Below, piece after piece: positions 8,773 to 62,554 of a stretch of DNA of 64,000 nucleotides. The translations under genes were made by a program, and so were the position numbers. Within the stretch, counting starts at the first letter, position 1. Each line of letters starts with the position of its first letter. The notes below the pieces were generated by a model. That model saw nothing but the letters and a program-made list of their open reading frames with translations, was not told the origin of the DNA and did no database searches. The DNA comes from a virus. The DNA lies in the IMG/VR virus record IMGVR_UViG_3300037200_000158, positions 1-64,000 of that record; one strand, given 5' to 3'.

Positions 8773-8780
8773 ATTGGCCA

Positions 8781-13227: not shown

Positions 13228-13473
13228 ATGAGAGATCACGCGAACATCATCGCTTCACTGGTTGCCCTGAGCCTCGTCATCGCGACGATTCTGGCGCTGA
13301 CCTACCACGGACTCAAGGACGAAACGCTGGTCGCTATTCTGGCCACCGGCGCGGTCGGAATCGCGAACAGCATCGCAGGCGTGAAATCCGGCGCACCGCC
13401 TCCGCCCGCGAATGGCAACGGCAACTCCCCGGGTCAGTACGCGGTTTCCCAGCAGAATCAACCACCGGCGTAG
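13228..13473 (+). CDS. small membrane protein (two TM segments, holin-like topology)
   Basis: 81-aa track ORF. IIASLVALSLVIATILAL and LVAILATGAVGIANSIAGV. Confidence 0.55.
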   Translation: MRDHANIIASLVALSLVIATILALTYHGLKDETLVAILATGAVGIANSIAGVKSGAPPPPANGNGNSPGQYAVSQQNQPPA

Positions 13474-13501
13474 GCCGCATCCCAATTTCAAAGGAAAAGC
13501 A

Positions 13502-30107: not shown

Positions 30108-30180
30108 TTCGGTGTGGCGCAGCGGTCAGCGCGTCGGCCTCATAAGCCGAAGGTCGTGGGTTCGAGTCCCTCCACCGTTA
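30108..30180 (+). tRNA. tRNA-Met-like (CAU anticodon), imperfect stems
   Basis: Hand fold: D arm GCGC-AGCGGTCA-GCGC, anticodon arm TCGGC-CTCATAA-GCCGA, variable loop AGGTC, T arm GTGGG-TTCGAGT-CCCTC (one U.U mismatch). The acceptor pairs only 5 of 7 positions. No encoded CCA. Confidence 0.55.
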
Positions 30181-42344: not shown

Positions 42345-43796
42345 ATGCCCCTGTGGGAAAGTTTCTGCGGACCCTCGTACCAAAGCAGGTCCCGAACAGT
42401 TTCTACGGACCAACTCCGTAACATGTACCCGGAATCCGTGGAGAGCGGAACCGGTAAGGGCCGCTATGCCCTTTACGGCCGCCCCGGCAACGCGCTCTTC
42501 TCCACGCTATCGCTCGCCAATTCCGGCGCAGGCTCCGGCCAGGGACTTCTCGAGGTCCAAAACCGCTGCTTCGCGGTCGCGGGCGGGAACGTCTACGAGG
42601 TCGCGGCATCCGGCGACTTCTCCCTCATCGGCCCGGTAGGCACCCTGAACCCTGTTTCGATGGCGTGCAGCGCCACACAGGTCATCATCGTGTCGCCCGA
42701 CGGCGGCGGCTGGATCATTCCGCTTGCGAACACGGCAGGCTACGCCCAGATTAATTCGGCCGGCTTCCCGCTCAATCCGACGTACGTCACCTATCAGGAC
42801 ACGTACTTTCTGGTCGCGGCGGGCGGCACGCAGGAATTCTTCATCTCGGCGAACAACGACGGCACAAGTTGGAACGCGCTCGACTTCGGATCGAAGGAAG
42901 GCGCATCGGACTTCATCCTTGCGGTTCAGATGGTCCGGCGCCAGCTCTGGGTGTTCGGGACCGAGACCTCGGAAATCTGGTGGAACAGCGGCGCGGCGAA
43001 CTTCCCGTTCCAGCCTATTCAGGGCGCGCTGGTGGAAGTGGGACTTGCGGCGGTGCTGTCCCCTGCCGTTGTAGGAAATGGTCTGTTCTGGCTCGGAAGA
43101 AACAGCCGCGGCGAAGCTGTAGCATTTGCGGAGCAGAACTTCGCTCCGATCCGAGTCTCGAACCACGCAGTGGAGTCGGCGTGGGGGCAATATCCGAAGA
43201 TCTCGGACGCAATCGGCTACGGCTACGAAGAGAACGGGCATACGTTCTACGTGCTGAGTTTCCCGTCGGCCAATGCAACATGGGTGCTCGACACGAAGAC
43301 GGGCTTCTGGCATGAATGGGACTGGTGGAATACCGATCTCGGTGTATCGGAGGCGGCGCTTGCCCGCTTCCACTGCTTCTGCTTCGGCCAGCACCTGACG
43401 CTCGACTGGAAGATCGGGAATGTCTTCGCTCAGTCGCTGAACACCTATACCGATAACGGTGGAATCATTCGGCGGGTCCGGCGTTCGCCTCATGTGGATC
43501 AGGCGAAGCATCGCAATCGGCATGTACGCCTCCAACTCGATATGGAGGTGGGCGCTGTTCCGGCCGGGACGAACCCGGCTTATTCCATGCGGTTCTCGGA
43601 CGACGGCGGATTCACCTGGTCGAACGAACTCATCCGCTACATCGGAAAAACCGGCAAGTACGCGAATCAGGTTGTGTGGCGGCAACTCGGCAGTTCGCGA
43701 GACCGCGTTTACGAAGTGGTGGATACGAATTCTGACTTCAGCGTCGCATGGGCGGCGGCATATTTAGAAATCGCTCCCGGCACGGAACTCCAATAA
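42345..43796 (+). CDS. P22 gp10-like tail hub / packaged-DNA stabilisation protein
   Basis: 483 aa. LWVFGTETSEIWWNSG and the C-terminal RFSDDGGFTWSNE...VVWRQLGSSRDRVYEV parallel P22 gp10 (from memory). Confidence 0.65.
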   Translation: MPLWESFCGPSYQSRSRTVSTDQLRNMYPESVESGTGKGRYALYGRPGNALFSTLSLANSGAGSGQGLLEVQNRCFAVAGGNVYEVAASGDFSLIGPVGTLNPVSMACSATQVIIVSPDGGGWIIPLANTAGYAQINSAGFPLNPTYVTYQDTYFLVAAGGTQEFFISANNDGTSWNALDFGSKEGASDFILAVQMVRRQLWVFGTETSEIWWNSGAANFPFQPIQGALVEVGLAAVLSPAVVGNGLFWLGRNSRGEAVAFAEQNFAPIRVSNHAVESAWGQYPKISDAIGYGYEENGHTFYVLSFPSANATWVLDTKTGFWHEWDWWNTDLGVSEAALARFHCFCFGQHLTLDWKIGNVFAQSLNTYTDNGGIIRRVRRSPHVDQAKHRNRHVRLQLDMEVGAVPAGTNPAYSMRFSDDGGFTWSNELIRYIGKTGKYANQVVWRQLGSSRDRVYEVVDTNSDFSVAWAAAYLEIAPGTELQ

Positions 43797-47942: not shown

Positions 47943-48938
47943 ATGCCTATTTCCATACCAACAGCCCTCCTGATCGGAGCGGGCGTATCGGGCGGAGCCT
48001 CGCTCGCCTCCGGCATCATTGGCTCGTCTGCCGCCAGTTCTGCAGCCAATAAAGAAGTCACCGCCGCCCAGCAGGCCGAGCAGACTCTCCAGACTGCCGG
48101 GCAGACGGCGAATTCCACGCTTCAGGGCGTCGAACAGTCGCAACTCGCCGGATACTCGCCCTACGTACAGGCCGGGACCGCCGGACTTACGAACCTGACA
48201 GCGGCGCTGGCGCCGGGCGGTTCGCTCTCTCAGCAGTTTTCGTTCAATCCCTCGACGGTTTCGCAGGACCCGGCGTATCAGTTCCAGCTCCAGCAAGGCT
48301 TGCAGGCTGTACAGCGCGCCGCGGCTGCTGGCGGCACTCTTAACTCCGGCGGCACGCTGAAGGCCCTCACGCAGTACGGGCAAGGCGTAGCGGCGTCGTA
48401 CGAGAACCAGGACTACACGCAGGCGCTGAACACCTACAACACGAATCGCTCGACCAACCTCGGGAATATCCAGACGCAGTTGAACGCGGGAACCTACGGC
48501 CAGAACGGGACTTCCTCGGCGCTCCAGAACTACGGCAACCTGTTCTCGTCGAACACGCTGGGGGTTGGAAGTGCTATCGCAAACCAGCAGACCAATATCG
48601 GCAATGAGCAGGCGGCGGGAATTATCGGCGGAGCAAACGCGTGGTCCGGCGCGCTGGGAGGCATCGCCGGCGCCGCAAACGCATACGTCGGAGGCACCGC
48701 TCAGTTGCAGCAACTACAGCAGTTACTCGGCGCGCTCAACGGTGGCTCAGGTGGCGCGGGGAACAGCACAAATGTACCGGCCGGAGCAAGTGGACCATAC
48801 TCCGGTAACAATCCCGGTGGATATCTGCCGTCTGCGGCACCGTCGGTCGTGCAGACCGCCCCGAGCGCTTTCAATCTCGCTGGCTATGGCGGTTCGCCGG
48901 TGAATACGTCCTACGGGGCACCGGGGGTTGGATACTAG
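47943..48938 (+). CDS. internal virion/ejection protein (putative)
   Basis: 331 aa, Gly/Ala/Gln/Ser-rich. DPAYQFQLQQGLQAVQRAAAAGGTLNSGGTLKAL is a motif seen in podovirus internal proteins (from memory). Confidence 0.55.
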   Translation: MPISIPTALLIGAGVSGGASLASGIIGSSAASSAANKEVTAAQQAEQTLQTAGQTANSTLQGVEQSQLAGYSPYVQAGTAGLTNLTAALAPGGSLSQQFSFNPSTVSQDPAYQFQLQQGLQAVQRAAAAGGTLNSGGTLKALTQYGQGVAASYENQDYTQALNTYNTNRSTNLGNIQTQLNAGTYGQNGTSSALQNYGNLFSSNTLGVGSAIANQQTNIGNEQAAGIIGGANAWSGALGGIAGAANAYVGGTAQLQQLQQLLGALNGGSGGAGNSTNVPAGASGPYSGNNPGGYLPSAAPSVVQTAPSAFNLAGYGGSPVNTSYGAPGVGY

Positions 48939-48941: not shown

Positions 48942-50567
48942 ATGGCCGCAGATCCCAACATCATCCTCGACTACAAGCCCGCGCAGATCGCCCCGCCGGA
49001 ATCTCCCCTGGCTGCCTACGGGCAGGTGCTCGGCGTCGCAAATGCCGCGCAGAATCTTCAGGCTGGCCAGCAGAAACTACAATCGAACGCGCTCGAACTC
49101 CAGCAGCAGCAGCGGGCGGTTGATTACCAGAAGGCGTTTACCGGGTCCGTTCAAAAGCACACGACCCAGAACGCCGACGGTTCGCTGTCAACCGACTGGA
49201 GCGGAATCCAGGGCGACATCACCAACGCCGGGTACGGGCCGGAAGCGCTCGCGCTCAACAAGAACATCCTCGAAGCTAAGGAGGCTGGGCTCAAACTCAT
49301 TGAAACGCAGCATCTGGCGGATCAGGCCAAAGTCGCAGGCTTCGCGAGCGCATTGAATTCACTCCCACCGGTGGATCCGAAAGCGCCCGGTGCCAGCGAC
49401 CAGATTGCGGCATTCAACGGCGCATTTCCGAACGTTCTTGCCAACTCAGTCCAGAAGGGCGTCATCACGCCCCAGCAAGCACAGCAGTACGGCGCGATGT
49501 TCCAGCAGGGCGGCAATACCTGGACGCCGCAACTCCAGATGCAGATCGATGGCGCGAAGAACGGCGCGCTGACAGCCCAACAGGCGATTGAGCATGGCTC
49601 TAAGTTAATCGACCAGGCGCGGGAGCAGACGCAGGTTGATTCGGTAGTGACCCATAACAAAGCCGAAACGGCTAAGATCAACGCCGAGATGGCAGATAAG
49701 GCGAAGTCTGACGCCGCGGCGCTCCTGTCTAATGCGACCTCCGCCGCAGACTACGATGCGAAGAAGGCGACGGTCGACCCGAAGGTGGCCGCGCAGTTGC
49801 CGGATTCGAAGGGGCTCGATTTCTCTGATGACGGAATTGAAGGCACGCGCGACAAAATCCTCAAGTCCGGCATGAACGCCGAACAGGTCGCCAACTACGA
49901 GCAGAAGAAAATCAGCGTAGCATCCCTCGCAGCGGCTCGCGAAGCGAATTCGATTGCGCGGCAGACCTCAAATGATATCCGCCTTCAGATGCTTCAGGGG
50001 AAGCCGAATCCCGCGCAGGTTCAGGCCTCGAAAGAAATCGACAAACTACAAACGCAAGAAAACCCGCTTTGGAGCAAACTCGCTCAACTGAACTCCGCGC
50101 TGGGCGACGGTTCGAAGTCCGCGGATCTGTTCATCCCTGAAAAGGGAGAGCAGCCGGTAAAGATGTCCGTGAAGTCCGGCGGCGATGACGACACAGCTAA
50201 ACAATTGACGGCGGACATGGTCGCTCGCCGGAACGCGATTGCCAGCCAACTGAAGGGCTTTGTGAAGCAGAAGTATGACCTCGGCGCGAAGAACGGCGCT
50301 GAGCCCACCGTGCCGCTTCAGGACGTGCTGGATAAGATCGATGCAGCGGTGCCGGGCCAGAAAGCCGATCCGGTTGACGGGCAGACGCAGGAGCCGAATC
50401 CGGGCCCAGCGAAAACACCAAGGACACTTAATCCGGCGGCGAATCCGGCGGATGCTGTAACGCTTCAGGGATATCTCAAGCAGGCAGGCTGGACTGGTGG
50501 CGCACCGACCGCGCAGCAGAAGGCAAAAGCAGCACAACTGGCAAAAGCTGATAACTATCAGTTCTGA
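48942..50567 (+). CDS. internal virion/ejection protein (putative)
   Basis: 541 aa, Gln/Ala/Lys-rich and helical. Assigned by position. Confidence 0.55.
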   Translation: MAADPNIILDYKPAQIAPPESPLAAYGQVLGVANAAQNLQAGQQKLQSNALELQQQQRAVDYQKAFTGSVQKHTTQNADGSLSTDWSGIQGDITNAGYGPEALALNKNILEAKEAGLKLIETQHLADQAKVAGFASALNSLPPVDPKAPGASDQIAAFNGAFPNVLANSVQKGVITPQQAQQYGAMFQQGGNTWTPQLQMQIDGAKNGALTAQQAIEHGSKLIDQAREQTQVDSVVTHNKAETAKINAEMADKAKSDAAALLSNATSAADYDAKKATVDPKVAAQLPDSKGLDFSDDGIEGTRDKILKSGMNAEQVANYEQKKISVASLAAAREANSIARQTSNDIRLQMLQGKPNPAQVQASKEIDKLQTQENPLWSKLAQLNSALGDGSKSADLFIPEKGEQPVKMSVKSGGDDDTAKQLTADMVARRNAIASQLKGFVKQKYDLGAKNGAEPTVPLQDVLDKIDAAVPGQKADPVDGQTQEPNPGPAKTPRTLNPAANPADAVTLQGYLKQAGWTGGAPTAQQKAKAAQLAKADNYQF

Positions 50568-50934
50568 CTTTCAGACAATACCCCTCCTTTGGTCTTTCAG
50601 ACCACGCTGCTCTATTAGCAGTTCTTTGAAAGAGAGAATGGTGACCATCTTCCTGCCTTTGCCCGGACCATTTTCGGGAAGGCCGCAGCTCTTTAACCTG
50701 AGTCGCTATCTCAGGTGACTGCCCGCGCCGTCTCCGCGCGTACGATGAAAGTCTGCCGGTGAACCGAAGTGTCCCGGATTCCATCTGGGTTGATGACCGC
50801 CCATAAACTCAACTGGCAGTGGGATTTTTAGCTCCTGCATCTACTCGTATTAGTCCCCACCAAACGCCCCGAGGATCTCCGTGAGGCGCAACTTCAGCGC
50901 AGGTTTGCCGCCTGCCCGGCTGAAGTGTGGGCTT

Positions 50935-50943
50935 TGTAATACA
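50935..50943. promoter_or_regulatory. TGTAATACA palindrome
   Basis: Perfect 9-mer, 8 nt before ATG 50951 of a 26-codon ORF. Confidence 0.55.
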
Positions 50944-50950
50944 ATTGCGG

Positions 50951-51031
50951 ATGAAGTTCCGCCATCAATCACTTCGTCAGTATGATACCATGGGTTCGTC
51001 AATCACTATTCCGCCCGCCAGTCCGGCCTGA
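50951..51031 (+). CDS. possible 26-codon leader peptide
   Basis: MKFRHQSLRQYDTMGSSITIPPASPA. Its 3' end lies inside the terminator stem. Very tentative. Confidence 0.25.
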   Translation: MKFRHQSLRQYDTMGSSITIPPASPA

Positions 51032-51066
51032 AGAACCGGAGTCCACTGGCGGGCTTTTTCGTTTTT
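51014..51066 (+). terminator. intrinsic terminator/attenuator directly upstream of the giant ORF
   Basis: CCCGCCAGU...ACUGGCGGG (9 bp, with inner CCGG/CCGG) followed by CUUUUUCGUUUUUCG. It ends 5 nt before ATG 51071. Confidence 0.6.
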
Positions 51067-51070
51067 CGAA

Positions 51071-54000
51071 ATGCCCGACACTGATATTTGGGATATAGCG
51101 GCAGCCGCGAAGAGCGCGCCGCCCCCCTCCGCTGACATCTGGGATATTGCCGCGTCTACGCCAGGGTACCGCTCGCCCTACAGTCGTGAGGCGATGGAGG
51201 CTAACGCGCCCGGCGTGCCGAAAGCACCGTTGCCATATGAACTGCAGAAGCCGGATGAGCAGGCGGAAACAAATCGCGCCGGCGGGTCCACGTTCCAAAA
51301 TCCACGAACTGGGAGAATCTATCCGCGCCAGCAGCCCGGCAGTGAGAGTGGCCCATTGTCGGCGTTGGATCTCCCGATTCAGGCACCGGGCCACGCAGCG
51401 GAAGCTGTCGAGGCACTGGCGACACCAGCCGAAGACGCCGCGATGCAGATTGCTGCCGGTGTTCCACCTGCGCAGGTCGCCCTAAGTCCCGAATCTCTCA
51501 AGGCCGGAGCTCGCGGTGTCGCAAAGGGCATTCAGGCGGGATTAGAGGCCGCAACGCCATTACTCGCTGGTGGAGCTGCAGCCGCGCCGCTCGAAACAGC
51601 CGCCACGCTCGCGTCCGCCGCATTTGCCCAAGCGAAGACCGAAGATCTCCTGAAGCAGGTCGGGGTAGCGCCGGAGTACTCGGAACTCGCCGGAAGTGTC
51701 GCCGGGCTGCTCGCTGGTTACGCCGCCGGGAAGATTCGGCTGAGCCCCGAACAGGCATCGCTGATCGAGACTCTGCAAGGCAAGGATGCGCAGACACCGG
51801 AAGGGCAAGCCGCGCGAGTCCATAAACTTCAGGCTATGGCCAGCGACCCCGGAGCATCGCAGGGAGAGCGCGATGTAGCGTCGGCACTCCTGAAGCGAAA
51901 CCACGGCATCGAGTTCGAGCCGTTTCGGCCTGCGGAAGCGCCCGCTGCGCCCGAGAGCGCCGCTAGTACCCCAGCGACCGCTGAAACGCCACAGGCCGCG
52001 CCTGAGACGCCAGCGGCCCAACCTGAAGCGAACGCCGCTCCGGCTGAGACGAACGTTCCCGGTTTCGAGACGCGCGAGATCCTTCCCGAAGACGTGAAGC
52101 CCGGCGCAATCCTTCGGGACGCCAACGGACGAACAGGCGTTGTCACCGAACTTCGGCAGGGGAAGAATGTCAAATGGACGGACGATACCGGCGCCGAACG
52201 CACGACTACGCTGCCGAAGTTTCTCCAGCGGATGACAGCGATCGCGCAGACTCCCGCAGCGTCGGCACAGCCAGAAGCGCCCGTTAGCCCGCCGGTCGGC
52301 ACCGCCCCTCCGACTGAGCAGAATCAGCAACCCGCAGCGCCGCAGGTACAGGAAACGCCCACTTTAGGCGCCAACCTCCCGCCGGAGCAAATGCCCGGCC
52401 CGGCAGTCACGCAGGCTGGCGCGGAGAATACGGAGCACGTCGAGAAAGAGGTTCAGGCTGCGGAAGCGGTCGCGCCGCCTGCAACGGCGGTTGAAGCGCC
52501 AGCAACTCCGGTTGTAGCCGCACCGCCGCCCGAGCTCCCGCACACGGTCGAAGCACTCCCTCCCAACGAGGAACCGAAGGAAGCCGAAGCGCCCTACAAG
52601 TTCTCGTCCGCGCAAGTCAATCTGCCGACAGCCTATCACCGCGCGTTCACGGATGCGGTTGCCGGGATTCCAGACTCCGAACTCGCCGAGGACGGACGTG
52701 AAGACGATCCCCACATTACCGCTCTCTACGGGATTCATTCCACGTCAGCCGAACCCGTCAAGAAGCTCCTGAAGGATCAGGGGCCTATCACGGCGACCAT
52801 TGGCCCGATCTCGATCTTCAAAGGCGAAGACGGAAAGCCGGATGTCGTCAAACTCGATATCGACTCGCCCGCACTCCACGATCTGAATGGAAAACTCCGC
52901 ACGTTGGAGCACACGAATAACGTCCCGGACTACACGCCACATCTGACCTTGGCCTATTTGAAGCCGGGCGAAGGCGCAAAGTACGTCGGGAAGGTCGTGC
53001 CGGGGCTTACCGGGCAGCAGGTTACGTTCAACCGTCTGATGTTCAGCGGCAAGGACCAGGCACGCACGGATATCCCGCTCGCAGGCCAAACGAAGCCGGA
53101 GCGTCCGCGCGCCATCGAAGAGTCCGCGCCCGAAGCGCCCTCCGGTGAATTCGGCAAGTCCTCCCTTTCCCGCCTGAGCGACAAGGAAATCCGCGCAGCC
53201 GCAGCGAAAGACGGTATCGACCCGGAACCATACCTCGCGGAGCGCGCCGGCCCCGGCGGCAACCGCACCGGGCGGAACAAGTTAGAGCACGCGATTTTTG
53301 AAGCGGGAGAAGCCCGCAAGGCGAAGGGGGTGATCCAGCCGAACGCAGAAGCGCCGGCAGCCGCGCCAGTGGAGGCGGCTCCGGGGAAGACGAAGGCAGA
53401 GCAGATTGCGGCGAATGAGGCGCGCATCCGCGAACTGGAGTCGAAACTCGGCGCATCCGGCACCGTTCCGGCCACGAAGCCAAATCCGACGACAACGAAG
53501 ACGGTCCAGCAGTTGCGCGGCATCGCCGACACGCTCGACAAGCAAATCGAGGCGAAGCGGAATCCCGCGATAGCGCAGCAGAACCCGACGAGGCGACGCG
53601 CAGACATCGCCGCCGGTATGGCGAAAGAGGCCGACGCGATGGAGTTGGTCCAGTCCACGCTCCGCAATCTCGCCGACGCCCACGAGAACGGCTCTATTCC
53701 ATCGGTTCTGACGAACGTAAAGACGCGACCGCTTCTCGAGGACCTTCTCAGCCGCGACAAATTCCCGCAGGCGTGGCTGCACAGCGCGACCGTTACTCAC
53801 ATCACCACCGCGCTGAAGGGCAAGCCGAACACCAAGGAAGCAGTTGATCTCTTGACGCGCCGAAATGGTGGCGATGGCGTGCGCCTGACGGGCATGAAAG
53901 AGATAACGCTCGTCAGAGACCTGCTGGATAAGGCTGACGCCGCCGGGATCGGCCCAGCGAAGTACGCGAAGGAGGAACTCGCTCGGGCGACACGCGCATA

Positions 54001-57000
54001 CGGCGCAGGGTTGACGCCAGAGAATTGGCTCCAGGCTCATCAGGCGCTGAAGCCGTACGCAACCACAAAATCCGTTATACCTCCGAAAGAGCGCCAGATC
54101 GCAGAACTTGAACGTGGTCTGATCGGACGCAAGATCGAAGGTTTCTTCCCGACACCGAAAGCGCTCGCCGACAGAATGGTCGAGGAAGCGGACATCAAGC
54201 CCGGTATGCGAGTACTCGAACCGAGCGCCGGAAATGGAAGGCTTGCCGACGCTATCGCGAAAAAGACGGATGAACTCACCGCCATAGAGCCGGTGTCCGA
54301 CCTGCGCGCCATCCTCGACCTGAAGGGACACGCAGTTTCTGAGGACCGCGACTTTCTTGCGCACCGCGGCGAATACGACCGTGTCGTGATGAACCCGCCG
54401 TTCGAGAACGGGCAGGATATGGACCACGTCCGCCACGCTTTCGACCTCCTGAAGCCGGGCGGGAAGTTGGTCGCCATCATGGGCGAAGGTGGTTTCTTTC
54501 GCGGCGACAAGAAGGCGACGGCGTTCCGTGAATGGCTCCAGGCTCACGGGGGCACGAGTGAAAAACTGCCAGAAGGCACGTTCAAAGAGAGCGGCACTGG
54601 CGTAGCCACGCGTCTGGTAACGGTCACGAAAGCGGCCGCCACGAAGGAAGCGCCCGCAATAGCCCGAGCGCCGGCCGAAACGCCGAAGCCGAAAACCGCG
54701 CCGCTTCCCGAGGCGGACTACGCCGAAGTTGAGACCAAACTGGCGAATTCCGAAGCGGACCTCCGGGCCGCACGCCAGAACTACGAACGCCTGGACGATC
54801 TCTTCCGCGTCGTCAAAGATGCCACGGAGCGCGAACTCTCCGGCATCGACCTTCAGGAGTTCTCACGCGTTAAAAACTTAGACGAGGTAGAGGAAGATGT
54901 CCGCAAGCAACTGATTCTCGCGGGCCGCAAGTACGAGGCGGCAATGACGGCGCACGACCAAGCCCTTAATGCGGCCGCTGCGGTAAATCCGCTCCTGACG
55001 CCGCAGGCAAAGCCGATAGGTCCCGGCGTGCCGGTGCCCGAGGCTAAGGAAGCGAATAGCTCGCTTGGCGGAACAATCGACGAGGTGTCCGACCAGATCA
55101 AACTCATGGCGCGGCGTGGCGCTGATGATGCCGAGTATGACCCGCGCGACGATGTCCCTGATCTGAAAAGCAGCCTGAAGTTCCTCGATGAAGATATCCG
55201 CGATCTGGAGCACGCCGATCCTGCCTTGATGGCAACTGCGAAAGAGACTGCCGCGACCGCACGCAAGGTCATCGAGAGCGCGGAATCGTATACCGTTCCG
55301 CCGCCGAAGCCGGAACCGTCAGCCGACAGATACCGCGAACTCGACGCGCAGGTTAAGGCGATGCACAAGAACCCGGCGTATGCCGAGGACACGCCCGAAG
55401 GGCGACGGTTGCGCAATCAGGCGCTGGAGCTCAGCGACGAAAAGGAAATCCACCGTCCGGCATTCGTTGAAGAAGTGAATGCGGAGAGTATTGCCAAAGC
55501 CAAAGCGGAGCCGAAGGGACTTCCCGCGCCAGCACAGCGCGCCGTTGACGAGTTGAAGGACCTGGAGGCGGACGCACAGAAACTTCGCTCCACTGACTTC
55601 TCAAAGATTGACGCCAAAGACCCGGTAGCGAAAGAGGTTTCTGAAGACGCGCTGAAGACTGCCAAGCTCAAGGTCGATATGCGGAAGTTGCCCGGCTCCG
55701 CGCCGAATGCGCCGGAGCGAGTGGGCGAGTTCGATGCCTATCCGAAAACTGGGACCGTCACGATTCCCGCTGCGACCGCGAAGCAGATTGTCCCGCCTCT
55801 AAAGAAGGTAATCGAGGCCAAATCGACCATCCCGATCCTGAAGAACGTCTCCGTCATCAGCCAGAAAGGCAAGACGAAGATCACGGCGACCGATCTGGAG
55901 CAGGCAGTCACGTTCACGATCCCGACGAAGGCCCCGAACAGCGCAGTCACCATCCCGGTATCGGCTCTCGACCAGGCGATGAAGGCGAAGAACAAGGGCG
56001 ACCTGAAGATTGACTTCCAGCCCGGTACGGTCCCATCGCAAAACGGAAAGGCATCACTATCGGTCGGCCCGGCAGAGTCCAGCGCGGCTACGCTCGACAT
56101 CTCGAATTACCCCGAGATCCCCACGGCCACTGAGAAGGTGGGTAAGATTCCGGCGGAGAAGCTGCTGGACGCCATCAAAAAGACGTTCTACGCAATCTCC
56201 GCAGAAGAATCACGGTTCACCCTCAACGGCGCATTGTTAGAGGTTAAGGGCGGCAAAGCGAACATGGTGGCAACTGACGGCCATCGGCTCTCGGCTCAAT
56301 CGTTCGACGTTCCTGGTATTGAAGGTGACCATCGCTTCCTACTGCCGCGCCGGACACTCGACACGATGACAAAGTTGTACGCGAAGCATGCGGGAGACCT
56401 GACGGTTAACGCTGGCACTGGCGCAAGTAAGAAGTTCCTGACATTCGACACGCCCGACGGCACAACCTCGCTCTACACGATGCAGTTGGATGGGAACTTC
56501 CCCGACTACCAGCGCGTACTGCCGAACCCGCGCAACTACACGCATACGGCCACGGTGGACCGCGAAGAACTGCTCGACCTCATGAAGCGTATTATCGCCA
56601 TGAAGGAGCGCAGCAACAACGTTCTCCTGTCGTTCCGCCCCGATCAGGTGATTGGGTTCAAGTCGGCAGACGGCGCGGAAGTCAGGGGATCGGCACCGGC
56701 CACGCTGAAGACGCTTCCTGTGCCTAAACCTGAAAAGGACGAGGTTCAGCAAAATACCGAGCGCCGCCCGAACCCGCGCGAGAACTTCAACGCAAAGTAC
56801 ATCGCTGACGCCATTGCGCCGCTCGAAGGCAAGAACGTCGAGATCAACCTTCAGGATTCCAGCACCGCGCGCAATATGGGCGCGATGACCATCAGAGATC
56901 CACAAGACCCGAACCACACGGCAATCATTATGCCGATGCGGGACGACGTGGGGAACTGGGACGACGGGCTACCGCCGGTGAATCCGGTAAAAGAAGAGGG

Positions 57001-59509
57001 TAAGAAACTCGGCCCCGAAGCCGGAACCGCGCCTGCCCTCAGCGACGTAATCGCGCACGCCGCAACCCGTATCGACCAGGTCCGCGACTTCTTCGACGAC
57101 AAAGGAGCATCTGCCGACAGGCTCACGCGCAACCTGAACTTCGTCAGCCGCATTTCGCCGGAACTCGACACCGCCGCGCTCAAGGCCTCCGGCTGGAAGG
57201 GACTCGCGGCGGCCATCATGTACACAACGACGCCCGCTATGGACAAGGCGCTCGAAGGTTCGATGTCGCATGCCACGGTCGAGGAAGTCTTCAAGATCTT
57301 ACAGGAAGGACGCCTGCGCGGCATCCGTACCGGACTCTGGCTGCGCAACGCGGCGGAAGTGGCCGACGCTACCGACGAGGAGATCGTTAACGCTTTCCCC
57401 GGTTACAGCCGACTGCTCGACGCGGTTCAGGGGCGTCAGGGTCTACCGGGTGATCTGTCGCAGGCGGCTGCCGCGCGCCTCGAACGCAACGAGATCGACG
57501 AACTGCGGGACTTCCTGATTGACACCTTCGACACGACCGCCGATCTGGTAGCCCATGTCATGCTGCCGGGGCGATTCAACGAGATGCTTTCGGATCCATC
57601 AGTCCGCCGCGCAATCGACATCTACAAGCAGAATGCCGAACCGGCCATGCGCGACCTGCACGAAGAGCACGAAGGCATCCTGTCCCAGCATCTCGGGCCG
57701 GTTATGGGCGGAACTTACTTTCCGCTGATTCCGCTGGCCGATGAAGAGCAACACCCGGGCGGACCCGGGATCAAGACCCCGTACATCAAGCCGCGCAACG
57801 CGAATAAGCTCGCGACCGGCCTGTCGAGTGACTACGATCCGACGCTGAAGACATTCCGGTCTACGTTGGAACGCCGCGTCCATGCCAGCGTTAAGTTCGA
57901 TCTGCTGCGCGCTGCCGAAGCAACCGGCTGGCTCACGCCCGTTGGCGCCGATGACGATCCGCGTGTGTTTGTGGACCCGAATGGCAACGAATGGCCCGCA
58001 GCCGTTCGCGAGATGGCACCCGGCAAGACGCTGATTCGTCCCGGCCAGAAGCCGATTCCTGTCGGCAAACGCTTCGGTGTGATGCCCAAGGTACTCGCGA
58101 ACGAACTCGATATCATCCTCGAGGGCCCGAACTACGACGAAGCGCCGAACGCCCTGAACGGAATTCTGCACTTGCTGAATCGCTCCGCGCTGGCCGGCGC
58201 GGCCGTTATGGAATCCGTCTTCCACGGCAAGAACCTCGCGGGCGGCATCGTCCAGAACATGCCGGCGGTTCTGGCCACGCTCGGAAAGGGAGGGTATGCG
58301 GGCTTCCTGAAGGACTCAAACGGCATTGCGGCCGTCCTGAATGCCGCGCCATCGCCTACTGAGTTCGCCGCCGACCTTATCAAAATGGGACGGCTGGGAA
58401 TCCTTGGAGATCGCTTTGGGCAGTCGAGCTACAGCAAGAGAATGTCCGAACTGCTCGGAGAAGACGGCTCGCTCGCGCACCGGATCTCGCTCGCACCGCT
58501 TCTGTTCGGGCCGCAAGGTCTCGACGTATTGGCGCGCTGGATGCTTTTCAAAGCGAAAGAGACGCTCGATCCCGGCTATACGCCGCGCGAGATGGTGGAT
58601 TTCGTCAACCAACTGGGCATCTACGTCAACGGCCAGCAGAGCCGGATGGTGCGGTTTCTCCGCGCGCAGGGCCTAAATCCGTTCGCAGTTGCCGGAGTCG
58701 CCGGACTGGGGCGCGGCTTACGCTCGCTGACGGGAGGCGTTTCGCCGGTCGCCGGGTCTCTCGGTTGGAAGCTCGCGAACTGGCTGACCATCGGTATCGG
58801 TGGCTCGCTGCTCATGTGGTACCTGACCCACAAGGCCGTTACCGGCAAATCCCCGCTGGGGGACCCGACCGCGAAGCCGGGCAAAATTCCCCTCCCGTCG
58901 AAGTTCCGGCGGTCTACGTTCGCGCAAGCCCTTGCGCCGGGCGGGGGAACGCTCTATCTCGACATGCAGTACGGAAATCCCGATGTGGCCCGCGGGCTAC
59001 GCGCCACCGGCCTCGATGCTGCCTTCAGGACCGCCAACGCAGGCGGGAGCACCCAGCAGACGGCTGAAGCGGCACTGGCGCAGATGCTCGATTCCTGGAG
59101 CACCCCTCTCACCGGTCCAGCCACGCGGGCTATGATCGCCGGCCTCGGCGGGGTAGAGCCGCATGTGAACAGTCTGATCGACTCGCATGGAAAGAACGCC
59201 GTTAGCCTGCTCGGCTCGTTACCCGAGAAGCAAACGCCATTCACCACGTTCGGCCAGAAGTTGACCGGCCTGCCAGCGAACGCCGGATGGCGAACCCGCG
59301 CCGCTGTGATGGAGTTGAATCAGATGTTCGGGATAGGCCTTGAGGACATCGGCGTTATGCCGAAGCTGCCGCAAGCCACCGGACAGCAGCCGGAGACGCT
59401 GCCGCGCGGCGCTGTCGATATCCTGCTGCCGAGCCTGGTCTCGGGACCGTCCAATCCATACGGAGCCGCTGCGCACGTCCGCCAGCAGCGCGCCGCTATG
59501 GGTCAGTAA
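51071..59509 (+). CDS. 2,812-aa polyvalent (multi-domain) virion/ejection protein
   Basis: A single uninterrupted track ORF at the end of the ejection-gene block. Domains are listed as separate features. N-terminal DIWDIAA repeat, long Pro/Ala/Glu linkers, and a C-terminal TM-like segment WKLANWLTIGIGGSLLMWYL. Confidence 0.9.
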   Translation: MPDTDIWDIAAAAKSAPPPSADIWDIAASTPGYRSPYSREAMEANAPGVPKAPLPYELQKPDEQAETNRAGGSTFQNPRTGRIYPRQQPGSESGPLSALDLPIQAPGHAAEAVEALATPAEDAAMQIAAGVPPAQVALSPESLKAGARGVAKGIQAGLEAATPLLAGGAAAAPLETAATLASAAFAQAKTEDLLKQVGVAPEYSELAGSVAGLLAGYAAGKIRLSPEQASLIETLQGKDAQTPEGQAARVHKLQAMASDPGASQGERDVASALLKRNHGIEFEPFRPAEAPAAPESAASTPATAETPQAAPETPAAQPEANAAPAETNVPGFETREILPEDVKPGAILRDANGRTGVVTELRQGKNVKWTDDTGAERTTTLPKFLQRMTAIAQTPAASAQPEAPVSPPVGTAPPTEQNQQPAAPQVQETPTLGANLPPEQMPGPAVTQAGAENTEHVEKEVQAAEAVAPPATAVEAPATPVVAAPPPELPHTVEALPPNEEPKEAEAPYKFSSAQVNLPTAYHRAFTDAVAGIPDSELAEDGREDDPHITALYGIHSTSAEPVKKLLKDQGPITATIGPISIFKGEDGKPDVVKLDIDSPALHDLNGKLRTLEHTNNVPDYTPHLTLAYLKPGEGAKYVGKVVPGLTGQQVTFNRLMFSGKDQARTDIPLAGQTKPERPRAIEESAPEAPSGEFGKSSLSRLSDKEIRAAAAKDGIDPEPYLAERAGPGGNRTGRNKLEHAIFEAGEARKAKGVIQPNAEAPAAAPVEAAPGKTKAEQIAANEARIRELESKLGASGTVPATKPNPTTTKTVQQLRGIADTLDKQIEAKRNPAIAQQNPTRRRADIAAGMAKEADAMELVQSTLRNLADAHENGSIPSVLTNVKTRPLLEDLLSRDKFPQAWLHSATVTHITTALKGKPNTKEAVDLLTRRNGGDGVRLTGMKEITLVRDLLDKADAAGIGPAKYAKEELARATRAYGAGLTPENWLQAHQALKPYATTKSVIPPKERQIAELERGLIGRKIEGFFPTPKALADRMVEEADIKPGMRVLEPSAGNGRLADAIAKKTDELTAIEPVSDLRAILDLKGHAVSEDRDFLAHRGEYDRVVMNPPFENGQDMDHVRHAFDLLKPGGKLVAIMGEGGFFRGDKKATAFREWLQAHGGTSEKLPEGTFKESGTGVATRLVTVTKAAATKEAPAIARAPAETPKPKTAPLPEADYAEVETKLANSEADLRAARQNYERLDDLFRVVKDATERELSGIDLQEFSRVKNLDEVEEDVRKQLILAGRKYEAAMTAHDQALNAAAAVNPLLTPQAKPIGPGVPVPEAKEANSSLGGTIDEVSDQIKLMARRGADDAEYDPRDDVPDLKSSLKFLDEDIRDLEHADPALMATAKETAATARKVIESAESYTVPPPKPEPSADRYRELDAQVKAMHKNPAYAEDTPEGRRLRNQALELSDEKEIHRPAFVEEVNAESIAKAKAEPKGLPAPAQRAVDELKDLEADAQKLRSTDFSKIDAKDPVAKEVSEDALKTAKLKVDMRKLPGSAPNAPERVGEFDAYPKTGTVTIPAATAKQIVPPLKKVIEAKSTIPILKNVSVISQKGKTKITATDLEQAVTFTIPTKAPNSAVTIPVSALDQAMKAKNKGDLKIDFQPGTVPSQNGKASLSVGPAESSAATLDISNYPEIPTATEKVGKIPAEKLLDAIKKTFYAISAEESRFTLNGALLEVKGGKANMVATDGHRLSAQSFDVPGIEGDHRFLLPRRTLDTMTKLYAKHAGDLTVNAGTGASKKFLTFDTPDGTTSLYTMQLDGNFPDYQRVLPNPRNYTHTATVDREELLDLMKRIIAMKERSNNVLLSFRPDQVIGFKSADGAEVRGSAPATLKTLPVPKPEKDEVQQNTERRPNPRENFNAKYIADAIAPLEGKNVEINLQDSSTARNMGAMTIRDPQDPNHTAIIMPMRDDVGNWDDGLPPVNPVKEEGKKLGPEAGTAPALSDVIAHAATRIDQVRDFFDDKGASADRLTRNLNFVSRISPELDTAALKASGWKGLAAAIMYTTTPAMDKALEGSMSHATVEEVFKILQEGRLRGIRTGLWLRNAAEVADATDEEIVNAFPGYSRLLDAVQGRQGLPGDLSQAAAARLERNEIDELRDFLIDTFDTTADLVAHVMLPGRFNEMLSDPSVRRAIDIYKQNAEPAMRDLHEEHEGILSQHLGPVMGGTYFPLIPLADEEQHPGGPGIKTPYIKPRNANKLATGLSSDYDPTLKTFRSTLERRVHASVKFDLLRAAEATGWLTPVGADDDPRVFVDPNGNEWPAAVREMAPGKTLIRPGQKPIPVGKRFGVMPKVLANELDIILEGPNYDEAPNALNGILHLLNRSALAGAAVMESVFHGKNLAGGIVQNMPAVLATLGKGGYAGFLKDSNGIAAVLNAAPSPTEFAADLIKMGRLGILGDRFGQSSYSKRMSELLGEDGSLAHRISLAPLLFGPQGLDVLARWMLFKAKETLDPGYTPREMVDFVNQLGIYVNGQQSRMVRFLRAQGLNPFAVAGVAGLGRGLRSLTGGVSPVAGSLGWKLANWLTIGIGGSLLMWYLTHKAVTGKSPLGDPTAKPGKIPLPSKFRRSTFAQALAPGGGTLYLDMQYGNPDVARGLRATGLDAAFRTANAGGSTQQTAEAALAQMLDSWSTPLTGPATRAMIAGLGGVEPHVNSLIDSHGKNAVSLLGSLPEKQTPFTTFGQKLTGLPANAGWRTRAAVMELNQMFGIGLEDIGVMPKLPQATGQQPETLPRGAVDILLPSLVSGPSNPYGAAAHVRQQRAAMGQ
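52583..53080 (+). other. 2H phosphoesterase (LigT-like) domain of giant protein (aa ~505-670)
   Basis: Two H-x-T/S motifs with the usual spacing: DPHITALYG and TPHLTLAYL. Confidence 0.65.
54098..54640 (+). other. SAM-dependent N6-adenine methyltransferase domain (aa ~1010-1190)
   Basis: FFPTPKALADRM, VLEPSAGNGRL (motif I), VVMNPPF (motif IV). Confidence 0.8.
55754..56944 (+). other. DNA polymerase III beta sliding clamp (DnaN)-like module (aa ~1562-1958)
   Basis: Collinear with full-length DnaN: STIPILKNVSV..KITATDLE; VTIPVSAL; EESRFTLNGALLEVKGG.ANMVATDGHRLS; FLLPRRTL; LDGNFPDYQRVLP; NFNAKYIADAI; AIIMPMRD. Confidence 0.75.
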
Positions 59510-59688
59510 TGTTCCTGCTCGATGAAAACGGTCGCGTATGGGCGCATGTTACGCCGCGCCGGGACACCGGATTCCCAACCGACTCCGACATCGAAGAGAT
59601 GCTCCGCGCCTACAAGCCAGAAAACGACCCGCAGGTACGAGCCATTCTGGCGGCAATCGGGCAGGCCGAGAAAGAAGAAAAACCATGA
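59509..59688 (+). CDS. hypothetical small protein (59 aa, below track cutoff)
   Basis: TAATG junction with the giant ORF and an ATGA junction with the next gene. MFLLDENGRVWAHVTPRRD.... Confidence 0.55.
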   Translation: MFLLDENGRVWAHVTPRRDTGFPTDSDIEEMLRAYKPENDPQVRAILAAIGQAEKEEKP

Positions 59689-60296
59689 AAATCATCGCCA
59701 CTATCCTCTGCCTCTCCGCCGCCCTGCACGGTCAGTCCCTGCACATAACGGCTTCCACGCTCAGTCCCGCCGACGTTCACGCCCTATTCGGCCCCCTGCG
59801 CAAGAACTACGGCGCCGCCCGCGTCGACATCTGCTCGTCCTCGCCCGATGCCGTCACGATCCCGCTCGGGAAGATCCGCCAGCAGGTCAAACTGACGAAC
59901 GGCGTCGCTATCCTGTCGAACACCGAAGCGCTATCGGTCATCGCCCGCGCCCAGAGCACGACGAAGGTCGCAATTGGACTTCGTTACGGACTCGCGGCTG
60001 TGCAGCTCGCAGCAATCGCGTCGACATGGAGCGGACTGAGTGCGACGATCAAGAACACGCTCACATCCTCGGCTGTCGCAGGCGGCGGACTACTGACGGT
60101 CGTCGGCAATGCGGCTACCGTGAACTCCATGGTGTCGTATTCTTCCGTAGCGCTGCCGGAGACGCTGCAAATTCTGCCGCAAGGCTGCGCGCCAACCGCC
60201 ATCGAACTGTTAGAATTCTCCAAAAGTGGGATAATGGAGCCTGCATCTATCGACTTTCTGTACCCGCTTCAATCCTCGAAAGGAACAACCCCATGA
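59685..60296 (+). CDS. secreted protein
   Basis: Track ORF 59538..60296 trimmed to MKIIATILCLSAALHGQS. Confidence 0.6.
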   Translation: MKIIATILCLSAALHGQSLHITASTLSPADVHALFGPLRKNYGAARVDICSSSPDAVTIPLGKIRQQVKLTNGVAILSNTEALSVIARAQSTTKVAIGLRYGLAAVQLAAIASTWSGLSATIKNTLTSSAVAGGGLLTVVGNAATVNSMVSYSSVALPETLQILPQGCAPTAIELLEFSKSGIMEPASIDFLYPLQSSKGTTP

Positions 60297-60460
60297 ACCA
60301 AACCGAACTGTTTCTGATTACGATGGGCCTCACTTATGCCCAGATGGTACTCGCAACGAACAAAACGCTCCCAGCCGCGCAGGTCGCGGCGCTTCAGGCA
60401 TTCGTAGCCGCCGGCGAAGGCGTTTCGGCCGCATTCACGACAAGCCCCGCTGTGGCGTAA
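60293..60460 (+). CDS. hypothetical small protein (55 aa)
   Basis: ATGA overlap. MNQTELFLITMGLTYAQMVLA.... This is the tail of the spurious 312-aa track ORF. Confidence 0.5.
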   Translation: MNQTELFLITMGLTYAQMVLATNKTLPAAQVAALQAFVAAGEGVSAAFTTSPAVA

Positions 60461-60493: not shown

Positions 60494-60544
60494 GCGCCCT
60501 GCGGATGAGGCTTCTGCCTTGTCTTCAGGGCGCTTTTTTATTTT
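60494..60544 (+). terminator. intrinsic terminator ending the late/ejection operon
   Basis: GCGCCCUG...CAGGGCGC stem with an inner AGGC-UUCU-GCCU, followed by UUUUUUAUUUU. Confidence 0.8.
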
Positions 60545-60559: not shown

Positions 60560-60587
60560 TTGACAGCAATGTGCCGCATCGGATAAT
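60560..60587 (+). promoter_or_regulatory. sigma70-type promoter
   Basis: TTGACA (60560-65), a 16-nt spacer, then GATAAT (60582-87). AT-rich upstream region. Confidence 0.65.
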
Positions 60588-60659: not shown

Positions 60660-61424
60660 ATGCCCAAGTTACACAAGTTACACGAATTGCTTGCCGTCGA
60701 TGGGAATCTCAAAGCCCAGGCCGACAAGACGCGAACCGAACTCATGGGAACGTTCGAGAAGAAGACGCACCTATTCTCGGAAAAGACCGTTTCCTACAAA
60801 CCCTACGAAGAGAACTCACAAACAACCGTTGAGAGCCAGCTCGACATCCAGACCACAGTTCCGAAGGAACTGAAATGGCTGTCGGAATTCATCGTCAAGT
60901 CGCTGGACGTGTCCTATCAGGTAGCCGAGGCGAATACAATCGCCCGTGCCGACGTGGTGCTGGAGAACGGAACCGTCCTGCTTTCCCAACTGCCTGCCAC
61001 GTCCCTGCTCGAACTCGAAAAGCGTGCCAAGGAGATGCACGACTTCGTGGCCTCCATCCCGACGCTGGACCCGGCGAAAGGCTTCCGGCTCGATCCCGAC
61101 AAAGGCAGCGACGGAATTTTCAAGGCGCGCGAAGACCGAAAGACGCGCACGAAGAAGATGAATAAGGTTCTGACTCTCGCGCCGCCGACCGACAAGCACC
61201 CGGCGCAAGTTCAGGTGGTTGTGGAAGACGTTCCAGTCGGCGACATTCTTACACTGGAATGGTCTGGACTCATCACTACGGCCGCCAAGGGAGACATGCT
61301 GTCCCGCGTTGAGGACTTCGCTCGTGCGGTTAAGAAGGCCCGCGCCAGGGCCAACGAAGCGGAGATCGCAAAGAACGACACCAGGATCGGAGCCGTAATC
61401 GTCGGCTACGTCTTCGGCCTGTAA
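60660..61424 (+). CDS. conserved hypothetical protein (first gene after sigma70-type promoter)
   Basis: 254-aa track ORF with AGGA upstream. MPKLHKLHELLAVDGNLKAQ...LPATSLLELEKR...IPTLDP...HPAQVQ. I recall similar uncharacterised phage/actinobacterial proteins but cannot name a family. Confidence 0.7.
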   Translation: MPKLHKLHELLAVDGNLKAQADKTRTELMGTFEKKTHLFSEKTVSYKPYEENSQTTVESQLDIQTTVPKELKWLSEFIVKSLDVSYQVAEANTIARADVVLENGTVLLSQLPATSLLELEKRAKEMHDFVASIPTLDPAKGFRLDPDKGSDGIFKAREDRKTRTKKMNKVLTLAPPTDKHPAQVQVVVEDVPVGDILTLEWSGLITTAAKGDMLSRVEDFARAVKKARARANEAEIAKNDTRIGAVIVGYVFGL

Positions 61425-61763: not shown

Positions 61764-61916
61764 ATGGCTAAAAACCAGACACATTCCGACCTTCACCGAG
61801 CGACGATCAGGGTACCCCATTCGCTCTGGAAGCGCATCAAGCAAGCCGCGCTGAATGCAGACAAAACGATCCAGGAGTACGTGACTCTTGTGATGGACAA
61901 GGCGACGCCGAAATGA
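61764..61916 (+). CDS. ribbon-helix-helix protein (50 aa, below track cutoff)
   Basis: MAKNQTHSDLHRATIRVPHSLWKRIKQAALNADKTIQEYVTLVMDKATPK. ATGA overlap with the nuclease gene. Confidence 0.6.
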   Translation: MAKNQTHSDLHRATIRVPHSLWKRIKQAALNADKTIQEYVTLVMDKATPK

Positions 61917-62554
61917 GTCCCGATTTCAACGCCGAAACGCATACCTACGCCGAACCGGGAACCGGGCGGCGGATTGAGAGCGTCACGCAGGTTTTAGAGA
62001 GGGCCGGGATCTCTGATTGGTCCAATGTGCCGGACGAGGTCCTCTGGGAAGCGCAACAGCGCGGAACGATGGTGCATCGCGCGATCCACTTCGCAAACCA
62101 GCGCAATCTCGACCCCGAGAGTGTAGACGAACGCATTAGCGGCTACCTGGAGGCGTGGAAGGCCTTCGCTTCGGATCACCAATTGATCGTCCGGCGTAGC
62201 GAGATGCTCCTTTATAGGCGCATCACGATTACGGATCAGGAAGTCATTGTGCCGGCAGAGAGTGACCTTGAGATTGTCGGAACGGGCGACGCCGAAGGAA
62301 ATATTATCAGGCAGGGAGAAATCGTCCTCGACGTGAAGACTGGCGACCCTACTGACGCTTGGGCGCCGCAGTTGGCCGCATACGTGAGAGCACTCAGCCC
62401 GACCGCGCGGCACACGCACAAGCGCGTGAATGTGCAGTTGTCCAGAGATGGAAAATACCGCCTTTGGTGGTGGCCGATCAGAACCTTCGATGAGCACTGG
62501 GGCGTCTTCCGCAACGCTTTGATCGAAGGTAAGCGAAAGCAGGTAGCGGCGTGA
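61913..62554 (+). CDS. PD-(D/E)XK (RecB/Cas4-like) nuclease
   Basis: ETHTY...SVTQVL...RGTMVHRAI...GTGDAEG...IVLDVKTG...QLAAY follows the nuclease motif order. Confidence 0.75.
   Translation: MSPDFNAETHTYAEPGTGRRIESVTQVLERAGISDWSNVPDEVLWEAQQRGTMVHRAIHFANQRNLDPESVDERISGYLEAWKAFASDHQLIVRRSEMLLYRRITITDQEVIVPAESDLEIVGTGDAEGNIIRQGEIVLDVKTGDPTDAWAPQLAAYVRALSPTARHTHKRVNVQLSRDGKYRLWWWPIRTFDEHWGVFRNALIEGKRKQVAA

Follow-up and report, generated by a model that had tools for sequence, protein, structure and literature searches.

What is a complete sliding clamp doing in the middle of a giant phage protein that is encoded among late structural genes? The question arises from IMG/VR virus record IMGVR_UViG_3300037200_000158, a contig of 94 kb of which we analysed positions 1 to 64,000 (the window). 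An open reading frame (ORF) at 51071–59509 encodes a single polypeptide of 2,812 amino acids (aa) in which a 2H phosphoesterase, an N6-adenine DNA methyltransferase and a beta sliding clamp follow one another. Sliding clamps are parts of the replisome that are put on DNA by an ATP-driven loader. Were a clamp part of an injected multi-effector protein, a virus would have a new means of working on its own DNA as it enters the cell, and the evidence for this here consists of the recurrence of the clamp in several phages, the intact partner-binding cleft and the rewired dimer interface. The anatomy of the protein is solid and surprising; the function that we propose for the clamp is a prediction.

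A full-length sliding clamp within a giant late protein

The giant ORF is laid out as follows, all parts being on the plus strand:

51071–59509, plus strand: giant ORF, ATG start, 8,439 nt, 2,812 aa, encoding a polyvalent protein
51071–52240, plus strand: N-terminal chassis region, aa 1–390, a twin D-I-W-D motif followed by Ala/Gly-rich hydrophobic stretches
52583–53140, plus strand: 2H phosphoesterase module, aa ~505–690, with H548 and H624
53741–54670, plus strand: gamma-class N6-adenine DNA methyltransferase module, aa ~891–1200
54716–55690, plus strand: linker region, aa 1216–1540, conserved in the relatives P0055, P0056 and P0060 (see below)
55754–56944, plus strand: complete three-domain beta sliding clamp module, aa 1562–1958
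56957–56968, plus strand: W-D-D-G motif after the clamp, aa 1963–1966
57002–59506, plus strand: C-terminal alpha-helical chassis tail, aa 1978–2812, ~840 aa

An earlier note, made by eye, had described one uninterrupted ORF of 8,439 nt with these three modules. The frame is indeed unbroken, its G+C content at third codon positions (GC3) is 0.72, similar to that of the adjoining genes, and all of the motifs which that note had quoted for the 2H, methylase and clamp modules lie where it placed them. For the clamp the positions are STIPILKNV at 1585, TDGHRL at 1735, GNFPDYQRVLP at 1808 and IIMPMRD at 1952. All three DNA_pol3_beta Pfam domains score above their curated cut-offs: the N-terminal domain (PF00712) at aa 1578–1683 with 36.4 bits (cut-off 24.4), the central domain (PF02767) at aa 1693–1812 with 60.1 bits (cut-off 27) and the C-terminal domain (PF02768), over its best stretch at aa 1906–1957, with 35.2 bits (cut-off 27). 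The processivity-factor family phrog_947 is covered from profile position 5 to 365 of 368 (E 1.8e-48), and a phmmer search of the PDB with the clamp found 7rzm at 1e-28. An AlphaFold2 model of aa 1541–1980 (predicted local distance difference test (pLDDT) 81.5, predicted TM-score (pTM) 0.81) matched DnaN crystal structures in Foldseek with E ~1e-30 and target TM-scores of 0.83–0.88. The proposal of a full-length DnaN module is thus upheld by domain matches and predicted fold alike, and the model places a clamp protomer fold here. The module departs from a stand-alone subunit of ~370 aa in that it is buried at aa 1562–1958 of 2,812, in a late operon.

The 2H module has its two H-x-T motifs as HIT at aa 548 and HLT at aa 624, which by sequence place it in the 2H phosphoesterase superfamily. 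It matches 2_5_RNA_ligase2 (PF13563) with 30.0 bits against a cut-off of 27 and phrog_755 with E 5.4e-9, in agreement with the 2H/LigT assignment made earlier; the Acb1 family model (PF23474) reached 23.9 bits, under its cut-off of 27. The methylase carries motif X as FFPTP at 1025, motif I as VLEPSAGNG at 1048 and motif IV as NPPF at 1108. By this X-I-IV order it belongs to the gamma class, with DNA as its predicted substrate. A profile of the module and its homologues matched adenine-specific DNA methyltransferases of the PDB: the entry 7vru at 5e-11 and both M.TaqI and type I HsdM at about 1e-8. The module scores 28.5 bits with Methyltransf_23 (cut-off 27) and E 2.5e-80 with phrog_15406, one of the three giant-protein PHROGs (15406, 11358 and 10691) that it matches. 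It is 38–43% identical to giant late proteins of cultured podophages and 40–47% identical to proteins bearing PF18798, PF18838, PF18763 and SNF2 domains. A stand-alone DNA methyltransferase gene lies elsewhere in the window at 8748–9722 on the plus strand (phrog_67, E 1e-74), so that the phage encodes a further methylase in addition to that of the giant protein.

The embedded clamp recurs in other giant proteins

We searched 1.84 billion cluster representatives exhaustively by phmmer with aa 1541–1980. The top matches were clamps within five other giant proteins of 2,153–5,019 aa, plus two fragments, and the best stand-alone DnaN followed at merely E 1e-39. These giants were absent from the results of word-index protein searches with the clamp. 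The clamp-bearing giants, with the cargo that each carries beyond the clamp, are:

P0054: 2,831 aa, clamp at 1213–1636, 63% identity to this clamp, E 1e-146; no further cargo detectable
P0055: 3,384 aa, clamp at 1654–2075, 58% identity to this clamp; His_Phos_1
P0056: 5,019 aa, clamp at 2863–3276, 45% identity to this clamp; SLT and 2H
P0057: 2,153 aa, clamp at 894–1302, 44% identity to this clamp; 2H
P0060: 2,293 aa, clamp at 1880–2268, 40% identity to this clamp; 2H
L001 (a locus on a 98.5-kb European Nucleotide Archive contig): SLT, 2H and methylase

In an identity matrix the embedded clamps are 37–68% identical among themselves and 30–37% identical to any stand-alone clamp, with P0060 borderline. 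When the giant protein is compared with P0054 module by module, the clamp is the best-conserved part (59%, against 42% for the tail). L001 has the order SLT, 2H, methylase, linker and clamp, and is called as four genes, with a +1 frameshift at 11331–11335 within the clamp, at a point that corresponds to residue 1817/1818 of the present protein. This frameshift is probably an assembly or sequencing error or a sign of decay, and may instead reflect programmed frameshifting.

The genomic contexts agree as well. Three of the four that were fetched are matching late-gene blocks, in which several mid-sized genes precede the giant; a gene of the P22 gp10-like family PF11134 lies upstream in L103 and L105, and an SU10 adaptor gene in L105. 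The fourth context, L104, which belongs to the phage of P0055, has no informative Pfam marker upstream. At 2742–3386 on its minus strand, ~7 kb upstream of the giant, L104 has a gene whose 214-aa product contains the C-terminal domain of RNA polymerase alpha (PF03118), which is unusual in a phage.

A scan of IMG/VR with the embedded-clamp alignment returned stand-alone DnaNs only, at no more than 34% identity. In a scan of Joint Genome Institute (JGI) metagenomes, cellular dnaN was dominant among the matches listed and no embedded clamp was among them, that of this contig included. The stand-alone clamp closest to the embedded one, P0061, is encoded in what looks like the early region of a phage, together with MazG, Mom and DNA methylases. 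Matches to the clamp module in the phage database came from 104 records, all less than 60% identical, and those listed had 22–28% identity and lay within ordinary stand-alone DnaN genes. Because of the context of P0061 and these phage DnaN matches, we consider that the module was probably captured from a phage replication gene.

The cleft and DNA-facing residues are kept and the dimer interface is altered

Functional sites were mapped with E. coli DnaN (L106) as the ruler, whose residue numbers are used below, and with 251 stand-alone clamps for comparison. The peptide-binding cleft was examined at L155, T172, G174, H175, R176, L177, P242, R246, V247, N320, Y323, M362, P363, M364 and R365. In all six embedded clamps these residues are identical or conservatively replaced, with single exceptions (N320 is Asp in three), and the cleft is predicted to bind partners. 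The six inner helices carry a net charge of +7 here and +3 to +8 in the clade, the stand-alone mean being 4.6 with a standard deviation of 1.9. The DNA-facing residues K24, K80, K96, R197 and K205 are retained.

The dimer interface is different. The literature describes it as held by salt bridges K74–E298/E300, R105–E301/E303 and R103–E304/D307 together with the hydrophobic residues I272 and L273 (PMC12269063). In the embedded clamps position 74 is Ala or Ser and position 103 is Pro, Ser or Gly, while position 105 is Glu in five of the six; Lys or Arg stands at positions 74, 103 and 105 in 191, 207 and 204 of the 251 stand-alone clamps, respectively. The acidic E-x-E-E strand of domain III is replaced, and position 303 is Lys or Arg in 6/6 embedded clamps in an L-INS-i alignment, in a domain where the alignment is less stable and two MAFFT runs disagree. 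These substitutions look like a charge swap of the R105–E303 bridge, or else the module could be monomeric. A charge-swapped bridge would make the interface unable to pair with host beta. The embedded clamps also share clade-specific insertions and, 5–10 residues past the MPMR C-terminus, a [WFY]-D-D-(G/E) motif (6/6).

The clamp is optional cargo on a shared chassis

BLAST of the whole protein revealed two shared blocks, at aa ~6–390 and ~1950–2810, that are also found in giants with no clamp. The N-terminal chassis is common to the clamp-less giants P0002, P0005, P0011, P0052 and P0053, and the tail to P0002, P0004, P0005, P0006, P0010, P0012, P0054, P0055 and P0057. P0002 (1,587 aa) is essentially the N-terminal region, the 2H region and the tail, and P0004 is an SNF2 helicase joined to the tail. 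The clamp is thus optional cargo, since clamp-less giants share the chassis. In the giant protein, P0054, P0055 and P0057 alike, the clamp stands N-terminal to the tail.

One option raised in the earlier note was that the clamp tethers the methylase and the phosphoesterase to the incoming DNA. A specific partnership of methylase and clamp is not supported, as clamp-bearing relatives often lack a methylase. An SNF2-type helicase is found in none of the seven clamp-bearing proteins or loci and is present in the clamp-less chassis giants P0004, P0006 and P0011. In this small sample the distribution fits the idea that the clamp is an alternative DNA-engaging module to the "methylase-helicase dyad" of Iyer et al.

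The tail contains a conserved FVNQLGxY motif and a conserved hydrophobic helix that is followed by TGK(W/S)P. It is a conserved chassis and not a clamp-specific appendage. It had no match in Pfam, NCBIfam, PHROG or the PDB, nor by tblastn against phage records; its AlphaFold2 model had a pLDDT of 53, and Foldseek of this model gave nothing under E 0.8. Two identities were considered and are rejected for now: a PLxRFG domain, for which hhalign against a PLxRFG protein gave a probability of 0.3%, and a gp16-like tail by homology, for which there was no sequence or fold match.

The chassis tail also occurs on contigs L109–L113 from metagenome-assembled genomes (MAGs) labelled Solibacteraceae, Bryobacteraceae, Pyrinomonadaceae, "Acidobacteria bacterium" and, in one case, Parafilimonas. 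None of these MAG contigs carries a clamp, which shows it to be rare cargo. The cellular DnaNs nearest to the embedded clamp are from Bryobacterales. These affiliations hint at an acidobacterial host, and Acidobacteriota, whose phages are little studied, are the likely hosts.

The giant gene occupies an ejection-protein position

Genes for virion components precede the giant ORF. Upstream are a portal gene (phrog_156), whose product is 31–35% identical to P22-like portals, and a major capsid protein gene (phrog_283), followed by:

42345–43796, plus strand: P22 gp10-like head-closure gene (phrog_578, E 8e-91), which opens the cassette
47943–48938, plus strand: ejection-like protein of 331 aa (phrog_598 "DNA ejection", E 3e-11)
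48942–50567, plus strand: protein of 541 aa at the gp20 position, directly upstream of the giant ORF

The gp10-like protein has 33–36% identity to the products of the PF11134 genes that precede the giants of L103 and L105, and the 541-aa protein has 25% identity to the product of the gene immediately before the giant in L103. By tblastn, the gp10-like, 331-aa and 541-aa proteins all have conserved counterparts ahead of the giants at these two loci; tblastn of the 331-aa protein against phage records gave no match. Megablast of the giant ORF against 50,697 phage records also gave no match, and the phage is without a close cultured relative, none being present in INPHARED.

The giant ORF follows the head-completion genes as the final large gene of the ejection cassette, and by position it sits in the slot of gp16, the last P22 ejection protein. 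We infer that the giant protein is packaged in the virion and delivered with the genome. The virion or ejection status claimed for it earlier is supported through its context (the P22-like portal, the gp10-like and ejection-like genes, the synteny, and an N-terminal SLT domain in two clamp-bearing relatives, P0056 and L001); the tail has no detectable homology to known ejection proteins. The ORF had also been said to close the ejection and internal-protein block; it is the last large gene there, but a further ORF at 59522–60460 still precedes the terminator-like site of the operon.

Relation to polyvalent proteins and other known systems

The giant protein is best classified, as had been suggested, with the phage-type polyvalent proteins (Iyer, Burroughs, Anand, de Souza and Aravind 2017), which include P1 DarB, Pseudomonas prophage "PLxRFG domain" proteins and p69 of Aeromonas phage phiARM81mr, annotated as "putative virion structural protein". 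It combines at least two disparate activities in one polypeptide (2H, N6-adenine methylase and clamp), it is encoded downstream of the portal, major capsid, gp10-like and ejection-like genes, and it shares homologous modules with this group through its methylase. The layout as a giant, late, multi-domain protein is the same, delivery with the DNA is predicted for both, the methylase is 38–47% identical to those of polyvalent proteins, and a 2H domain is among the phage-type cargo listed in that paper. The new element is the clamp. The giant protein differs from the known members in having a DnaN clamp and a tail of a separate, unannotated family, and in lacking an SNF2 partner for the methylase, the zincin peptidase that is common, though not obligatory, among them, and PLxRFG or LPD Pfam domains. 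The main text of Iyer et al. 2017 makes no mention of a clamp, DnaN, PCNA or processivity, and the phage-type repertoire is described there as aimed at transcription and host take-over, not replication. In full-text literature searches no paper came up that connects sliding clamps to polyvalent or ejection proteins; the suggestion that such a clamp is without known precedent agrees with the literature searched. If the reading developed below is true, the polyvalent-protein repertoire gains a replication-type, non-catalytic domain.

With stand-alone beta clamps (DnaN; PHROG 947) the module has the three-domain fold, the cleft and the basic inner helices in common. It differs in its mid-chain place, in an operon of late structural genes instead of a replication module, in its sequence (30–37% identity), in its replaced or charge-swapped interface residues and insertions, and in the [WFY]DDG extension. 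With the ejection proteins of podophages (P22 gp7, gp20 and gp16; T7 gp14, gp15 and gp16) the giant protein shares the last cassette position after a gp10-like gene. T7 gp16 has an N-terminal SLT domain, as do relatives of the giant protein, whose own tail has a conserved hydrophobic helix. Unlike the P22 and T7 proteins it is four to five times larger, and it has no detectable sequence or fold similarity to them. The virion RNA polymerase of coliphage N4 embodies the same concept, a giant nucleic-acid machine that is carried in a podophage capsid and injected onto the incoming genome, but it is a polymerase rather than a non-catalytic clamp with a methylase and a 2H domain, and there is no homology. 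Phage Acb1 and viral 2H phosphodiesterases appear to share the 2H fold with its two HxT motifs, although for the present module the Acb1 model falls below its cut-off and the generic 2_5_RNA_ligase2 model scores higher.

Clamps also act in DNA modification and late transcription, as in the pairing of DNMT1 with PCNA and the use of T4 gp45 for late genes. Host beta clamp is reported to activate the late genes of phage Mu (PMC12867686). All three are analogous to the present case in that a clamp keeps a modifier or transcription factor on DNA. Those associations are non-covalent and use the clamp of the replisome, whereas the giant protein is a covalent fusion for which virion delivery is predicted.

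A possible function for the embedded clamp

We tentatively favour a reading in which the module is an orthogonal clamp, assembled on the genome as this enters, that serves as tether and recruiting platform. The giant protein would travel in the virion and leave it together with the DNA. The clamp modules of two copies would then join, at a re-engineered interface that is incompatible with the host, into a ring on the entering linear genome, and this ring could close without the host clamp loader, by threading of a free DNA end or by shutting of the weakened interface. It would then keep the protein and its effectors on phage DNA, where they might for instance provide protective methylation, while the intact cleft would offer a landing pad for clamp-binding enzymes of host or phage (polymerase, ligase, repair factors). 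In its complete form, which we hold with rather more reserve, the proposal is of a loader-free, virion-delivered clamp, unable to pair with host beta, that would equip the phage DNA with a private tool-belt as early as the first seconds of infection, tethering methylase and phosphoesterase and recruiting clamp-binding host enzymes while the host clamp pool is left untouched. Such a module could provide an engineerable, host-independent clamp.

Several points weigh against this proposal. Packaging of the giant protein in the virion has no direct evidence, and the tail is without detectable similarity to P22 gp16, T7 gp16 or any solved structure. Neither the canonical interface salt bridges nor the I272/L273 hydrophobics are kept in the embedded clamps, and the module could be a monomer that never encircles DNA. 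Neither a clamp loader nor a conserved internal clamp-binding motif was found, and the replication genes of the phage are not among the window's 64 of 94 kb. In P0054, P0055, P0057 and P0060 the clamp has no methylase beside it, so that tethering of a methylase cannot be its general role. Finally, Iyer et al. argue that phages do not replicate immediately on entry, which is why replication-type domains (primases) are restricted to the polyvalent proteins of conjugative elements.

The main rival, which we regard as doubtful, is that the clamp works off DNA as a decoy or sponge, its cleft (in a monomer or an orthogonal dimer) sequestering host clamp-binding proteins at entry. Candidate targets are clamp-loader delta, Pol III alpha, Hda, MutL, translesion polymerases and clamp-dependent nucleases, and the outcome upon entry would be the shutdown of host replication or the disarming of repair or defence. 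This would account for a cleft that is fully conserved whereas the canonical dimer interface is not, and for a clamp that acts as optional cargo beside other host-directed effectors. Delta, moreover, binds monomeric beta (I272A/L273A) far more strongly than the dimer (PMC12269063); given this preference, a monomeric module could trap delta and so block host replication. A pure peptide sponge, however, would have no need of the basic inner-helix lining, which is kept or raised, or of all three domains with K24, K80, K96, R197 and K205; the few copies in a virion would face abundant host partners, and Glu at 105 with Lys or Arg at 303 resembles compensatory upkeep of a dimer contact. It is improbable that a processed or separately made clamp jump-starts replication as the processivity factor of a clamp-dependent phage polymerase. 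The module does appear to descend from phage-type stand-alone DnaNs, there is no second dnaN within the 64-kb window, and Iyer et al. propose replication jump-starting for the polyvalent proteins of conjugative elements. Yet the giant protein has no peptidase Pfam match and no HExxH motif of a zincin-like peptidase, its gene is located in the late structural operon, most relatives of the chassis lack a clamp, the changed interface argues against standard use of a loader, and a normal dnaN may exist in the other 30 kb of the contig.

Two further roles are each distinctly improbable. As a transcription co-activator, the module would be a DNA-tracking clamp delivered with the genome, like T4 gp45 or the host beta used for Mu late genes; this precedent and the conserved cleft and inner lining are compatible with it, but no activator or sigma-like partner was identified within the window and no data specifically favour it. 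As a structural element inside the particle, the ring would hold or cap the end of the genome within the channel of the portal or tail, with no cytoplasmic function. The late-gene context, the basic inner lining and the constant place of the clamp N-terminal to the tail in the giant protein, P0054, P0055 and P0057 would suit this, but it leaves the strict conservation of the cleft unexplained, and a clamp is absent from most phages that have this chassis. The idea of an artefact, through chimeric assembly or the decay of a fused pseudogene, deserves next to no weight. The frameshift and four gene calls of L001 speak for it, but against it there are five more intact, in-frame cases from independent assemblies, the functional sites are conserved and GC3 across the ORF is like that of its neighbours; a chimeric assembly is excluded because the embedded clamp recurs, and this recurrence effectively refutes the artefact. 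The tether and recruiting platform on the entering genome remains the reading that we prefer.

Start and flanking signals of the giant gene

The 94,480-bp JGI contig carries an identical protein (P0001) that is called as 2,771 aa, with a start 41 codons later. A twin D-I-[WF]-D-x-I-A motif, with D-I-W-D in the giant protein, lies at aa 5–8 and 22–25 (51083–51094 and 51134–51145), and it is kept at the extreme N-termini of the homologues P0002 and P0005. On the strength of this conserved sequence we take the public call to be 41 aa too short and ATG 51071 to be the real start. The twin motif may be a packaging or targeting signal. Comparable repeated D-x-x-D-A-[IL]-A-x-K-[YF]-G motifs are found in P0055 and P0053.

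Signals around the gene and at the end of the operon are:

51013–51068, plus strand: hairpin and U-run, terminator- or attenuator-like, ending 3 nt before ATG 51071
59522–60460, plus strand: ORF of 312 aa of unknown function, the last gene before the terminator-like site
60515–60532: terminator-like hairpin that marks the end of the late operon
60560–60587: promoter-like site, TTGACA-16-GATAAT, 11/12 match to consensus

A non-coding gap of ~500 nt (50568–51070) lies 5' of the giant ORF, with the hairpin (51013–51054; -29.8 kcal/mol, z -4.1) and the U-run that follows it at its 3' end. There is no Shine-Dalgarno sequence before ATG 51071, and the related loci L103–L105 have no counterpart of the gap. 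This arrangement suggests that the giant gene is expressed via terminator read-through or attenuation. A possible internal start before the clamp, ATG 55680, is preceded merely by a weak AAGG.

Other features of the window

Beyond the end of the late operon there is a DUF7873 gene at 60660–61424 (E 2e-66) and then an exonuclease-like gene at 61913–62554; in the 2.6 kb beyond the window end there are no annotated genes. Similarity to the large terminase is split between two plus-strand ORFs ~3.2 kb apart, one at 11505–12338 that resembles the N-terminal part of phrog_2 and one at 15505–16266 that resembles phrog_5653 and the C-terminal part of phrog_2, with minus-strand ORFs at 12600–13223 and 13255–13860 between them. 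This may reflect an insertion, a mobile element or a split gene. An ORF of 191 aa at 3716–4291 on the minus strand matches the C-terminal part only of tyrosine integrase families (phrog_1, E 1e-28), and could be an integrase that has been cut short or a relic of a temperate way of life. Amid the structural genes, at 30108–30180 on the plus strand, there is one gene for tRNA-Met (CAT), with 59.9 bits in Rfam and a prediction by ARAGORN.

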